A stretch of DNA of 64,000 nt from Eledone cirrhosa (lineage: Eukaryota): contig OZ024740.1 in NCBI GenBank assembly GCA_964016885.1, positions 127,968,001 to 128,032,000 of the forward strand. Reading direction: 5' to 3'. The position numbers and the translations under genes are program-made. Below, one piece after another: positions 5 to 63,555 of the stretch (the first letter of the stretch is position 1; each line of letters starts with the position of its first letter). The notes beneath the pieces are model-generated. The model was not told the DNA's origin and ran no database searches. It saw nothing but the letters and a program-made list of their open reading frames with translations.

Positions 5-350
5 AGTTTTTACCGGTTGCGCATTTCTAAATGCTTTTCACATGACCTCTACCGACCAATCAAAATTGTTTTGACCACAAGAATTTTTGCAACACCAAAG
101 TAGCGCTGGAGCCACTTTCTTAACATAAAAACAGGTAGAATTCCCAAAACTAATCAGATCAGAGCAAACAACACGGACACTCTATCTCAAAATTATTTTT
201 GAAAAGCATTTAGAAATGCGCAACCGGTAAAAACTTAAAAACTGAAAACCACAACGGAATACTAACCCATACAATTATTAATACTCTTTTATTCCTAATT
301 AAACCATTTTTCAACTGTGAACAATTTGTCAGCATTTTCTATTCCGTTTA
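5..350. mobile_element. Small fold-back element (Penelope-like 3' end remnant) with hammerhead-like motif
   Basis: 36-bp inverted repeat, 5-40 vs 200-235. The plus arm reads TTGAAAA-GCATTT-AG-AAATGC-GCAA-CCGG-TA and runs into (TA)n at 355. A related 3' sequence recurs at 60187-60310. Confidence 0.5.
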
Positions 351-354
351 CCAA

Positions 355-427
355 TATATATATATATATATATATATATATATATATATATATATATATA
401 TATATATATATATATATATATATATAT
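355..427. repeat. (TA)n microsatellite
   Basis: Pure TA dinucleotide run. Confidence 0.95.
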
Positions 428-521
428 TAATAAAAAGAATTCCAACTTTGTTTTATTTACAATCCTTTAAAATTATAATGATATTATAATGAAATAGAAT
501 GGTAGAATATTAAATCTTCAT

Positions 522-560
522 TGAACAAGTACTTTCATGCTTTCGCAATCTTCTGGTTCA
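522..560 (-). ncRNA. Degenerate minimal type-I hammerhead ribozyme-like motif
   Basis: Minus strand: TGAAC-CAGAAGA-T-TGC-GAAA-GCA-T-GAAA-GTAC-TT-GTTCA. Stem I is 5 bp, loop III region AAGTACTT is palindromic, core has U4->A. Confidence 0.45.
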
Positions 561-1364
561 TATTCAACGCAGATCATATAAAACGTGTTTCAGTCATATT
601 CTAGTTTCGAATCTATTGAAAATCACCTAACGCCAAGGAAACATTCACGTTGAATACAAACGAATTAATATAATATCTTTGTACATTCAAGAGAGTCGAT
701 ATGTGGTCGATTTATGTGCCAAAAATATCAGGCAAATCTCTCTCAAATCAGACACTAAAAACAAGGAAATGAGCTATTGGATAATGTAGTCTAAGATATT
801 TTATGTCTTAAAATAGACTGGATAATCTCCGTGATTCTTATGCAGTTTGACTGTATATGTTTCCCCTTTCTGGACTGATAACGGGTTATACAATATCTCC
901 ACATCATAGGAAAATTATATTTAAATTTAAATTTGAGTGCAAAACATTAACTGGATATACTGTAAGGAAAAGAAAATATTAAATGTTGATGTGTTTTAAC
1001 TTTACGTTTCCTCAAAGGTCCTGACAGATTTGTAATTATTTTTACGAGACAAGAACACCACTCCCTCATTGCATAACCCGCTTAAAATCGCAACCAAATT
1101 TTCGTAAATTTAAACCTAACTCTGTTTAAAATTGACATACCTTGGATGGTGGGTTTCCGCACACACACTATCTGAAAGTAAAGATATTAGAAGGTCGTTA
1201 CTGGAAAACCTTTTGAACAGAGCCAAACTGAAGTTAAAAACCCTCGCTTGTATTAAATAGTATGGTGTTTTATATTCCACCGATTATCTAAAACAGCTTT
1301 TACCAGTATGCCATTTTCAATGTTGTTTTGAAACCCAAGACATCAGGGTTATCATATATAATGG

Positions 1365-1580
1365 TTTCTGATTTAAGTATATGGCCAACAATATTATTAA
1401 CCCAGTGAAAAGTCGATTAAATCAACCACAGTACGTTATTGGTCCCTTATTTCTTCGATATTGTAAGCACGCAAGACAAACTAACCGCAGCGGGATTTGA
1501 ACCCAGAAGGTAAAACGACGTAACTCTATAACGTTGAGCTTGCTGGCCAACGCTCTGCTAATACTGCCAATCCACTGCTC
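1365..1580 (-). mobile_element. Degenerate tRNA-derived SINE
   Basis: Similar to the SINE at 19166-19352 (cgggatttgaacccagaa...aatactgccaatccactgc). Confidence 0.6.
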
Positions 1581-1899
1581 TAAGAACATTATATATAATA
1601 CGGATAATTTGCTTTTGTTTCATGCTGCTTTTGTGGTTGTGGTGGTGCGGGGGTATTTCCTCCTTAACCATGATCGAAAAAGTATCTAAGATTGTATTAT
1701 TCAATGTTTACTCCTCTCTAAAACGAAAGAATATTCTCTTAGAAATATAGCTGTTGGTCAACCACCGTCTTAATGATTGCAACTTCTATGTTACACAGGC
1801 ATAGCATAACACATTTCATTCTCAGTCTATCTATTGTGGTAGAATGATTCTAAATATTTATTTCCTCATCCTTATCTTTTTTTTTTATATTTCTATCTA

Positions 1900-60538: not shown

Positions 60539-60947
60539 TATATGAAAGACGTTAAATAATAGAATTATGAAAATCAACTTACTTACTAAAATTTCACTCC
60601 AACTAATTAGTTTCTGTAAGGGAATAAATATGGTTACGGAACGTAATCATAGAGAATCCTTACGTCATCATGGAGTCTATTCTCAGCTAAGTTCCCAGGC
60701 AATTCGTGGACAAAGAGAACTCATATGAAAATAATTCAGTGGATGGAAAAAAGCGAGCGGGGACTAAATTCCAGGACATTGAAAAAATTCTCTGCCTAGC
60801 TGAGAATAGACTCCCTGATGACGTAGGGATTCTCTATGATTACGTTCCGTAACCATATGTATTCCCTTACAGAAACTAATTAGTTGGAGTGAAATTTTAG
60901 TAAGTAAGTTGATTTTCATAATTCTCTTATTTTACGTCTTTCATATA
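60539..60947. mobile_element. Fold-back element with ~150-bp arms carrying hammerhead motifs
   Basis: Arms 60539-60690 and 60797-60947, spacer ~105 bp. Confidence 0.85.
60810..60890 (+). ncRNA. Minimal type-I hammerhead motif (intact core)
   Basis: ACTCC-CTGATGA-C-GTAGGGA-...-TCCCTTAC-A-GAAA-C-TAATTA-G-TT-GGAGT, with the 12-nt palindrome AACTAATTAGTT. The mirror copy 60596-60676 has ATGATGA. Confidence 0.75.
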
Positions 60948-60960
60948 AATATATATATAC

Positions 60961-61160
60961 ATAAAGAAAAAAAGATGAAATCGAAAATGCAACTGGTGTC
61001 TTATTTTTATATGTGATAAAAACCACAGACCCTCCATCTCAACTCTACTTTTGAAAAGCAGAAGAACTGCGAAACGGGTAAAGGAACAAAATAAATATAT
61101 ATATTTTTTTTAAAAATAAGACTCCAGTTGCATTTTCGATTTCATCTTTTTTTCTTTATA
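60961..61160. mobile_element. 200-bp fold-back element with U3-A8 hammerhead-like motif
   Basis: ~47-bp inverted ends; internal CTT-TTGAAAA-GCAG-AAGAA-CTGC-GAAA-CGGG-TA-AAG (61048-61083). Confidence 0.65.
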
Positions 61161-61885
61161 CTTTCACTCGTTTAGGACACCTCGTATATTTTTCATTTTG
61201 TAAAAAAATCCTCACTTTCTAATATATATATACATATATATATATATATATATATATATATATATATATATATATATATATATATATATATATATATACA
61301 TATATATATATATACAGACATAGATACATATATATATGTGCGTACGTATGTATGTGTACGTACTCATGCTTTATTATGTATGTATGTATTTCTTTTTAGA
61401 TTTAGGTTTTTAACTTTTTATAATTATATGTGTGTATGTGGTTGTATGTATTTTTTCTCATGCAGATATGTACGTGAATGTATTTATATGTTTTTAGATA
61501 TATGTATATTCACCTACATTTATATATATGTTCCTATTCGTGTGATTGTGAGTATAAGCAAGCGTATCAATGTGTATGAATATGACTTATATGTGTTTAT
61601 ATGTGCGTGTTTTTTTTATATATATGTGTGTGTATGTATATGTACGTGTGTATATATGTGTTTGCAACTTAATAATAATTTTTATTTTCTTAATTCTTAT
61701 TTTTATATTTTTTATTTTTTTTTATTTTGTATGTGACGGCCTAATTCAGTATATGGTTGTTCATTGATTTTTATTTATTCTTATAATTATATGTGTGTGT
61801 GCGTATGTAGGTATATATCTATATATGTGTGTGCGTATGTATGTATGTATATGTGTGTATGTATGTGTGTGTATGTATGTGTGTA

Positions 61886-62585
61886 TATATGGTCTTTAAA
61901 GCGATGAAATACCAATGAAGGTTGGAAGATCACTGATGAAGGATTAACTTTATTCATATGTAACCCATTTGCAAGCACGCAGCACGTTTGTTTTCATATT
62001 CACACATATTTTCCCCCGCTATGACCCGTCTATTTCGTTCTTACAGCTTCCTCTCTCTCTCTGTATCTTTACCCCCTCTAACAGTCCTTCTCTCTGTTAG
62101 CCTCTTCCTCACACTTCACTCACTCACTCTCTGCTACTACCTCTCCTACTTCCTCCCGTTTGACCTGTGCGTAATTCTTTTCTCGTGCACGCTTGACCAG
62201 GCTGGTTGTTCCTTTTTTCTCTCTTGTCTACGATTTCACAGAACTTATGTTCACCGAATTCAGGGACTAGACTCCTTTTTCCACCCGTTTGACCTGTGCG
62301 GAATTCCTGCCTTGCTCACATTTCGACTAGGTTTGATGGCCTTTATTCTCTCTCGTTCACGATTTCACCGAACTTATATTCATGGAAATCTGGGACTTGA
62401 CTCTTTCTTCCTCACTTTTCGTTGCATTACCATCTTTGTTTGTTTACAGTCTCGCTCGTTCCCCTTATTTACGTGTCCCAACGACTTTCTTTAGCCGTTG
62501 CTCGCACCAACCGGAGGTATATGGTCTTTAAAGCGATGAAATACCAATGAAGGTTGGAAGATCACTGATGAAGGACTAACATTAT
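61886..62585 (+). repeat. ~60-bp direct repeats flanking a CT-rich segment (possible Penelope pseudo-LTR remnant)
   Basis: TATATGGTCTTTAAAGCG...GATCACTGATGAAGGA at 61886-61943 and 62518-62575; internal ~125-bp imperfect repeat. Confidence 0.55.
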
Positions 62586-62970
62586 TTATATGTATATATA
62601 TATATATATATATATATATATATATATATATATGTGTGTGTGTATGTGTGTGTTTGTGTATTTATGTGTATGTGTATGTATGGATATATATATATATATA
62701 TATATATATATATATATATATATATATATATATATATATATATGTATAAATATGCATGTATATATATATATATATATATATATATATATGTGTGTGTGTG
62801 TGTGTGTGTGTGTGTGTGTGTGTGTGTGTGTGTATATGTGTGCGTGTGTGTTTTTCTACTTTTATATTTATTATTCTTTTTTTTCTTTCCTTCTTCTTCC
62901 TCCAGCCTCACTTTCATATATATTATATTTTTGTTTTTCAAATCCACTGTCAATAAATACACCAGGATTT

Positions 62971-63030
62971 TTTCATTCTGATGACTGAAAGCAAATTTGT
63001 TTGCATTTAAGAAACCACTTGTAAATGAAA
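62971..63030 (+). ncRNA. Minimal type-I hammerhead motif (mirror of 59593-59652, stem II decayed)
   Basis: TTTCATT-CTGATGA...GAAA-C-CACTT-G-TA-AATGAAA. Confidence 0.6.
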
Positions 63031-63555
63031 TAATTATCTTATGTTGTTTATTACATAACTAATAAGCTCTGTAACCTACATAGAGCACTCTTTTTTCCTG
63101 GACCTTTCCGACGGAATTACTTCATTCACACACACACACACATATATATATATAAACATGTATTCATGCACACACACTCATACATACATACATTAGTCAT
63201 GTGGGTTAAGTTATTTGACAAAGTAAACTCACCACACATCCATCTTTTAACTGGCTTATACCTCTCACGCGATGGACGCATCATTTCACAAGCAAACATG
63301 CAAAATACAAGGGATACTTCTGTCTTCAATATGGTATTGGTAAAAGCACACAAAAGCAAGAAAAATAGCTTTTTACTACGGATTCAAAGTTAATATATTG
63401 ATGAAAATGCTTTCGTTTAAAAAATGACCAATTTCAGCGTACATCATATCCATTAACCTATCGTCTCACGTTTAATGTTGATACAAAGGCACTCTGTACA
63501 CAAATTGAATACACTTACGTTCTTTAATTTACATTCAGTTCCTGGAGTATTAATA

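Follow-up and report, generated by a model that had tools for sequence, protein, structure and literature searches.

We analyzed a 64,000-nt stretch of the Eledone cirrhosa genome (contig OZ024740.1; hereafter the window), repeat-rich animal DNA with numerous (TA)n tracts in which a first-pass annotation had listed 16 hammerhead ribozyme-like motifs, most of them in non-coding fold-backs. We propose, with a probability of roughly 70%, that these motifs mark the 3' ends of Penelope-like elements (PLEs) inserted in (TA)n. One family (A) codes for a reverse transcriptase (RT)-endonuclease of the Hydra clade, four non-coding families share the Hydra tail hairpin, and all the insertions are likely stubs of 5'-truncated complementary DNA (cDNA) whose copying start was probably set by two conserved RNA hairpins. 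The repeat mix of the window resembles the octopus mix reported in PMC13282606.

All 16 motif stretches were present where the annotation had placed them, and 11 held up as hammerheads. A strict type-I descriptor (CUGANGA, GAAA and NUH, with stems I and II of at least 4 bp) produced seven matches in the window, compared with a mean of 0.017 per shuffle across 60 local dinucleotide shuffles in 500-nt blocks. A scored scan tolerating one core mismatch gave 11 matches at or above the cut-off score of 10, all of them on the earlier list, compared with 0.16 expected from 25 shuffles. The other 5 of the 16 are degenerate. Two of these (522–560 and 196/199–235) scored 7.7, a level at which shuffles yield 2.5 matches, and are noise-level on their own; the remaining three (4052, 6374 and 13486) were missed by the scored scan at those coordinates, yet are backed by relatives. 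No hammerhead appeared among the Rfam matches listed for the window (150 of 157), and ARAGORN found no tRNA there.

The annotation had also described the motifs as lying upstream of (TA)n and pointing into it, and their placement bore this out. For 13 of the 16 cleavage sites a (TA)≥6 tract is found no more than 250 nt downstream, whereas random placement predicts 1.8 such sites across the whole window or 4.2 in its TA-rich parts, and none of 3000 random draws reached 13; the 16 motifs are not independent, as both arms of one insertion are counted. On the opposite side, 5 of the 16 sites have such a tract within the same limit. In two of the three exceptions a shorter TA run follows after 44 and 64 nt; the third has been parted from its end by a later insertion.

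The primary sequences had been called mutually unrelated. Microsatellite-masked self-BLAST of the window instead sorted the motifs into 10 families (three in A, two each in B, C, D and F, and one each in E, F', G, H and I), with kinship linking F to F' and E to I. The further remark that most motifs sit in the arms of inverted repeats fits 12 of the 16, which lie in homologous inverted pairs; E is head to head with a different family, and G, I and the F copy at 4052 are single. Five non-coding fold-backs (B, C, D, F and H) bear a tail on one arm and one arm only: the untailed arm stops at TA and its partner runs 70–110 nt further, an extension that we equate with the PLE 'tail' described previously (PMC8557442; PMC3846280). 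The arms of B (89% alike) enclose the younger D (97%). Overlooked in the first pass were a family J with three core-truncated copies, a partial F' copy at 60186 and the tail hairpins described below.

Several features of the hammerheads themselves bear on their structure. Stem II shows both-side changes between F and F' and between E and I, in comparisons of only 2–4 sequences. The stem III self-duplex is predicted at about -11.5 kcal/mol for A and D and is weak for B and E; in our proposal, hammerheads with a palindromic stem III would cut as dimers. As separate observations, the stem II of A and of D contains a long inner helix (53345–53420 and 60830–60862), and read tables suggest paired changes in the D helix among genomic copies. 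All three F' copies (1–40 on the minus strand, 196–235 and 60186–60205 on the plus strand) carry GCAA in place of GAAA and come from two insertions only 75% alike, so that GCAA is either a tolerated variant or the mark of a dead ribozyme in a still-mobile family. Many 5' breakpoints are located inside the hammerhead or no more than ~40 nt upstream (40, 3567, 3849, 3853, 60186, 60797 and 61011). We rejected one candidate, a direct repeat at 61891/62523, which has CTGATGA in the absence of the hammerhead order.

Family A is a coding element, and its ORF (open reading frame) identifies its clade. A single ORF encodes RT followed by a C-terminal GIY-YIG domain, with a CxCx5C linker between them; the GIY-YIG domain lacks the two-cysteine CCHH motif and has CxxC and CxH around conserved E and N residues. 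RWK and DKT were seen in the consensus of A's homologs, in a region that is truncated in A itself. These are the diagnostics of the Hydra clade given by Craig et al. (2021, PMC8557442). The ORF has 28 homologs, the best 14 at 35–44% identity in the alignment; a Pfam search of it returned no match, and viral contigs contained no relative. Judged by its sequence, family A is a Hydra-clade PLE. It is not a Naiad, a label the annotation had offered for the mini-insertions, because RT precedes a C-terminal GIY-YIG with Hydra diagnostics and the hammerheads are canonical, whereas in Naiads the endonuclease is N-terminal and canonical hammerheads are lacking. The statement that this element (53160–59376) is built like the anonymous hairpins was supported: it has hammerheads, (TA)n and an inverted 5'-truncated arm. 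Between its stop codon and 3' end lie 1.1 kb of non-coding DNA with an internal microsatellite, and tails are found at both outer ends and not at the tandem junction. A nearby 122-nt exact copy of A derives from the 3' untranslated region (UTR) just upstream of A's internal (TA)n, which suggests that priming is also possible at a UA run within the RNA.

A resembles the published Hydra elements (PMC8557442) in its domain order, linker, lack of CCHH, 3' hammerhead and (TA)n target, and differs from them in its 1.1-kb 3' region with a microsatellite and its long branched stem II; its hammerhead also differs from that of Hydra-1_Obim. Tails in the window measure 60–110 nt, compared with 30–40 nt in the Hydra paper (PMC8557442).

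We examined 78 metagenome loci of Hydra-type relatives, the best of 530 confirmed, some of which are redundant contigs. A sense hammerhead was present in 53 of the 78 (62 plus-strand matches, compared with 2 on the minus strand and 1 in one shuffle), and it lay 50–517 nt after the ORF in 30 of the 43 loci with at least 350 nt downstream. (TA)4 occurred within 400 nt of 14 of 49 distinct hammerheads, a low count due in part to contigs that end or run into a tandem copy. In one locus, stem III is identical to that of D.

DNA-transposon miniature inverted-repeat elements (MITEs) with TA target duplications and chance hammerhead-like motifs would also place TA on the flanks of inverted arms, as observed here. 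However, the motif count is far above that of shuffles; the arms are asymmetric, variably truncated and tailed on one side, with no matching fixed-length terminal inverted repeats; and the same motifs accompany an RT-endonuclease ORF in the window and recur in the 78 PLE loci. The shuffle excess, the unequal arms, the ORF link and the PLE loci refute a MITE origin, which we regard as having virtually no chance of being correct.

Comparing the upstream and downstream repeats of the metagenome loci revealed a motif just beyond the repeat end. It is a hairpin with a 4-bp stem (usually GCUC/GAGC), a two-base bulge starting with U, a variable stem and loop, and ACU. Leaders of Hydra relatives follow the order hammerhead, hairpin 1, hairpin 2, ATG, with hairpin 1 36–57 nt and hairpin 2 101–134 nt from the cut site. 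Two hairpins, 55–83 nt apart, were found in 18 of 22 non-redundant complete leaders and one in the other 4, compared with 0.028 per shuffled leader. The motif precedes 43 of 47 ORF starts (one of them likely spurious), whereas shuffles gave 2.2, the reverse strand 6 and ORF bodies 2. In most leaders the hairpins lie in the 5'UTR, 13–40 nt before the ATG. Variant hairpins were seen in three leaders (L043:60-190, L045:180-293 and L074:110-242), with a U-A first pair in L043 and L045.

The hairpin also emerged in segments chosen solely by their distance from a hammerhead, occurring in 37 of 40 non-redundant segments; 13 of the initial 62 segments had been dropped earlier for a contig end or early TA, and 9 as redundant. 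When 36 of the 40 segments were aligned, 89.7% of cells were paired, compared with 22–60% in slid controls, and 48 cells were changed on both sides, compared with 19.4 in shuffles; three outer pairs are invariant in this alignment and so give no evidence at those positions. Of 79 hairpins, 53 have C-G and 22 have U-A as the fifth pair, which lies above the bulge. Many repeat ends lie next to the hairpins as well. Among 17 measurable ends, some of which may be assembly edges, 8 stop 0–4 nt before a hairpin (binomial ~5e-6 under a 10/150 null), four of them before the first or only upstream copy and four before the second, ATG-proximal copy. An insertion that stops before hairpin 1 is untailed, and one that stops before hairpin 2 has a tail containing hairpin 1. 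The supplement of PMC8557442 offers two further cases: the Hydra-1_Ajap consensus begins 2 nt before hairpin 1 and contains both hairpins, and another consensus ends after hairpin 1.

The same hairpin is present in the window. With a relaxed descriptor we found it in all six tailed arms belonging to A, B, C, D and H and at 0 of 11 other sites (0.011 expected per site), 43–74 nt after the cut site and beginning 3–9 nt past the position of the untailed end. Both-side changes occur in C, D and H; among the outer pairs, C and H show a change to A-U and D a change to U-A at the second pair. A covariance model built from the metagenome loci alone (R1) ranked B and C first, with expectation values (E) of 1e-5 and 1e-4. 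Each untailed end has 3–5 TA-like letters in common with its target. Translation of the tails revealed no ORF start; in the relatives the tail corresponds to the 5'UTR. Rfam returned nothing relevant for six hairpin-bearing loci. A weak R1 match elsewhere in the window (44226–44340, minus strand, E 1.3), ~40 nt after a possible decayed hammerhead, is perhaps an old Hydra end away from a TA tract.

Taken as ends, the arms that carry these motifs very probably belong to PLEs. Because the tail hairpin is common to B, C, D, H and Hydra leaders, we consider a Hydra origin of these four families likely; E, I, F and F', which lack the hairpin, probably belong to another PLE clade with the same target. 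Our results support the first-pass view that these are Penelope-like insertions from several families, targeted to (TA)n, 5'-truncated and in many cases inverted. Its alternative, fixed-length non-autonomous elements, did not hold for D and F, the two families covered when we compared four sequencing runs with window positions 60430–61230. Both families proved to be abundant repeats under three species labels, and their other copies continue 5' past the window breakpoints. F as a fixed 140-nt unit is ruled out by common loose ends before 61011 (38 contigs in X1, 303 reads in X23 and 1 contig in X4). Contig depth on F drops from ~1.2 to 0.6 million past 61158, that is, beyond the untailed end, these summed depths not being copy numbers. 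Majority letters restore the D core at 60671 (647 of 670 and 565 of 576 reads), so the core change in the D hammerhead at 60596–60676 is private to that copy, and in F they restore the CCGG palindrome at 61076, though the table gives no phase for these letters.

A number of observations weigh against the proposal as a whole. The window contains no PLE protein remnant besides A, which alone is joined to an ORF, and H extends ~0.9–1.2 kb without such a remnant. The two F copies begin no more than ~2 nt apart, as expected of a fixed unit. R1 places H and D at noise level (E 5–9) and misses A, and the families of the window give no view of hairpin 2. Of the 17 repeat ends in the metagenome loci, 7 are far from any hairpin and another 2 are ambiguous. 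A has a tail at each outer end, a pattern not predicted by a strict rule of one cDNA per hairpin. Finally, the Poseidon PLE primed without relying on homology in its assay and did not need hammerhead cleavage (PMC11167929).

Some of these points would be expected if most of the non-coding families were fixed-length, non-autonomous ribozyme retroelements, resembling retrozymes or short interspersed elements (SINEs), that retain just the hammerhead and hairpin and borrow the Hydra enzyme. Only 1 of the 10 families has an ORF link, H is long, internally repeated and non-coding, the two F copies share nearly the same first base, both B arms start at a microsatellite, and non-autonomous PLE derivatives have been published (preprint 10.64898/2026.07.22.740005). 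Animal retrozymes (PMC7229834 and the same preprint) are likewise non-coding, carry a type-I hammerhead and have a proposed origin in PLE terminal repeats. They form head-to-tail tandems with a hammerhead per unit, however, whereas the window has head-to-head or single truncated ends, and self-BLAST found no head-to-tail tandem of short hammerhead units among the non-coding families. The 5' extension of D and F in other copies and the unequal arm lengths also argue against fixed units. Because A's 3' non-coding region, at 1.1 kb, is longer than every non-coding arm except perhaps H, the shorter arms need not reach an ORF. We therefore think it unlikely that such borrowed units account for most of the non-coding families.

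For the PLE ends, we hypothesize that the hairpins are signals at which reverse transcription starts, a role that we favor on balance. In this mechanism the GIY-YIG domain would nick both strands of the self-complementary (TA)n. The enzyme would bind a hairpin and start reverse transcription just 5' of it, aided by 3–5 nt of A/U pairing with the TA primer. Two cDNAs, often one per hairpin, would then grow toward each other from the two nicks, terminate prematurely, in many cases inside the hammerhead or a little past it, and be joined head to head via microhomology, leaving outward hammerheads that point into TA. Each inserted element would add TA tracts, and younger copies would therefore come to lie within older ones. 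A tailed end that runs on into the ORF would need a leader placed after the 3'UTR, either by tandem read-through or on a circle formed after hammerhead cleavage; a circular template was proposed by Cervera and de la Pena (PMC4209133). A parallel for this scheme is the Poseidon PLE, in which two internal starts bound the tail; its protein, a predicted dimer, cuts both strands and extends them (PMC11167929). More speculatively, and with odds that we place well below even, a dimeric telomerase-related RT-endonuclease might bind both hairpins, nick both (TA)n strands and launch two cDNAs, each from its own hairpin, on a hammerhead-closed circle; the dimer idea derives from the published prediction for that other clade.

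The fold-backs might instead be mirror copies of one cDNA or DNA end, made by self-priming or by cruciform repair at (TA)n, or the youngest of them might be assembly artefacts. A snap-back palindrome does lie at the A junction, and self-priming has been proposed from such palindromes (Arkhipova et al., PMC3846280); identity is 100% between J copies across (TA)79 and reaches 99.8% between A arms. Yet in B, C, D, F and H the two arms do not share a 3' end, and a mirror of an untailed arm cannot yield a tail. E and F' are different families placed head to head, and older arms differ by 3–16% and hence are not read artefacts. We favor two priming events over mirror copying because E and F' differ in family and the tails are asymmetric, and regard mirror copying as quite improbable.

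Hairpins could also act after copying, in endonuclease cutting or resolution, or in translation or packaging, such that the ends would reflect cleavage and not priming. Craig et al. ascribe the tail to endonuclease-mediated resolution (PMC8557442), and the D. virilis tail is required for endonuclease recognition (cited in PMC11167929). Covariation points to a single-strand structure, in which RNA and cDNA are indistinguishable, and the hairpins lie in the 5'UTR, close to the ATG in most leaders, which also fits this reading. Against this, the ends lie on the first-copied side of the hairpin and have TA-like letters in common with the target, and in the one assayed PLE both tail ends are reverse-transcription starts (PMC11167929). 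We consider a function after copying doubtful, and priming at the hairpins the better account of the ends.

Hammerheads, (TA)n targets, inverted 5'-truncated copies and one-sided tails are already published for PLEs. The Hydra supplement (PMC8557442) gives a (TA)n target for 26 of 27 families and hammerheads near 3' ends, lists an octopus family, and includes Penelope-13_HM, a family with an inverted 5'-truncated copy that carries a second hammerhead. Like the window elements, Naiads insert into (TA)n, occur as truncated copies in inverted orientation and have a tail on one side (PMC8557442). Cervera and de la Pena (2014, PMC4209133) described many minimal hammerhead families per genome and opposite-strand pairs 100–700 bp apart; the window hammerheads resemble their metazoan PLE examples in a short stem I, an unpaired base before stem II, a palindromic stem III and, in F, U3-A8, and depart from them in the GCAA of F' and the long branched stem II of A and D. 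As a catalogue alone, the window therefore represents ordinary PLE biology, locally dense, to which the twin hairpin adds value.

The twin hairpin is apparently undescribed so far as a cis-element. The words 'hairpin' and 'stem-loop' are absent from the accessible text and supplement of PMC8557442, and we found no description in the literature covered, which did not extend to subscription papers or to Repbase and Dfam notes. A close precedent is Poseidon PAc of Anolis (Frangieh et al. 2024, PMC11167929), which shares with our proposal two internal starts, an optional tail and an AT-rich target. Its starts lie in an AC-rich stem-loop inside the ORF, with no target homology and no repeated conserved motif reported; unlike PAc, Hydra elements carry two copies of one covarying hairpin in the 5'UTR, and their ends share TA-like letters. 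The origin of tails and inverted pairs and the retention of hammerheads have been called open (PMC11167929, PMC8557442), and a doubled covarying motif at two insertion ends makes that mechanism testable by mutation and rescue. With the hairpin as a short tag, annotators could recognize anonymous non-coding stubs as members of the Hydra clade; it also offers a point of comparison for template boundaries in the sister enzyme telomerase. Were the dimer-on-circle version true, it would explain the optional tail, the head-to-head fold-backs and hammerhead retention together, and a ~150-nt hammerhead-plus-hairpin cassette would suffice for any RNA to insert into TA repeats.

Table 1. Positions and structure of the hammerhead-bearing families in the window (arm, stub, hammerhead and hairpin coordinates).
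Feature	Positions	Strand	Description
Family A	53164..59376		young insertion, assigned to Hydra-clade PLEs; (TA)n at both outer ends
A arms		left -, right +	left a partial tandem; right inverted, 5'-truncated; 98–99.8% alike (self-BLAST)
A ORF	55115..57040	-	5'-truncated, 641 amino acids; RT, CxCx5C linker, GIY-YIG
A ORF, inverted second copy	57043..58142	+	3' half only; frameshift near 57770
A head-to-head junction	57035..57058	.	10-bp snap-back palindrome
A hammerhead, tailed arm	53313..53432	-	long branched stem II; palindromic CACGTG stem III
A hammerhead, untailed tandem copy	54045..54161	-	copy ends at 54006/54007
A hammerhead, tailed right arm	59106..59222	+	found in strict and scored scans
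A tail hairpin, right arm	59266..59309	+	first pair mismatched; relaxed descriptor; missed by R1
A tail hairpin, left-arm mirror	53269-53226	-	relaxed descriptor
A 3'UTR copy	59423..59544	-	122 nt, 100% identical, between two TA tracts
B left arm	59569..59859	-	untailed; hammerhead 59593-59652
B right arm	62764..63131	+	tailed; hammerhead 62971-63030; hairpin 63066-63089 (R1 E=1.1e-5)
C fold-back	14394..14808	.	left arm untailed, hammerhead 14437-14501 (-)
C right arm	within 14394..14808	+	tailed; hammerhead 14613-14677; hairpin 14725-14747 (R1 E=1.2e-4)
C third 3' fragment	14250..14300	+	untailed; enters the same (TA)42 from the left
D left arm	60428..60798	-	tailed; hammerhead 60596-60676; hairpin 60535-60509
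D right arm	60797..60948	+	untailed; intact hammerhead 60810-60890
E stub	59859..60185	-	hammerhead 60082-60126; ~60-nt tail without hairpin; head to head with F'
F fold-back	60961..61233	.	~48-nt untailed inverted arm (-); tailed arm 61011-61233 (+)
F hammerhead	61048-61083	+	U3-A8 core
F single copy	4012..4152	+	untailed, between TA tracts; hammerhead 4052-4085
F' stub	60186..60312	+	begins inside hammerhead
F' fold-back	1..354	.	arm 1-40 (-) cut by the window edge, starts in core
F' plus arm of 1..354	196-235	+	hammerhead-like, GCAA for GAAA
G stub	427..560	-	degenerate Hydra-style hammerhead 522-560; noise-level score, likened by eye
H left arm	4240-5232	-	tailed; core deleted; hairpin 4325-4283
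H right arm (fold-back 4240..7381)	5583-6442 and 7334-7381	+	untailed; hammerhead 6374-6428
I stub	13486..13728	+	untailed; distant relative of E
J family	3567..3900	.	3567-3630 (+), 3789-3849 (-), 3853-3900 (+); each truncated inside a Hydra-style hammerhead

Further details of individual insertions complete the picture of the motif-bearing families. At the E/F' join (60180–60190), the two unrelated families meet head to head with no TA between them. In J, a (TA)79 tract separates two copies that point toward one another and are 100% identical along 58 nt, whereas their similarity to the head-to-head partner is just ~75%; all J copies start in the hammerhead core. The right arm of H is split by a later insertion (6443–7333) with an internal direct repeat and (CA)n, which we take to resemble a non-autonomous Helitron-type element.

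Other repeats surround these families: 15–37 kb holds non-LTR retrotransposons of two kinds, and 8.5–13 kb holds Helitron remnants. The segment 61891–62586 is a ~700-nt insertion with 64-nt terminal direct repeats and an internal 147-nt repeat, and contains CTGATGA without a hammerhead. An intact-looking RT ORF of 1141 amino acids with a C-terminal restriction-like domain lies within 22349–31200, together with several tandem truncated copies ending in (TAA)n; we presume this element to be R4/Dong-like. Two copies of an apurinic (AP)-endonuclease/RT element, presumably Tx1/L1-like, occupy 15181–18930 and 31206–37068, the latter with an unbroken ORF2 of 1195 amino acids and an ORF1 frame of 715. 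A decayed Helitron at 7839–13260 retains Rep and Pif1 helicase pieces, and a ~190-nt dispersed repeat of SINE-like size is present in six copies (1429, 8191, 19162, 44625, 52768 and 63552).

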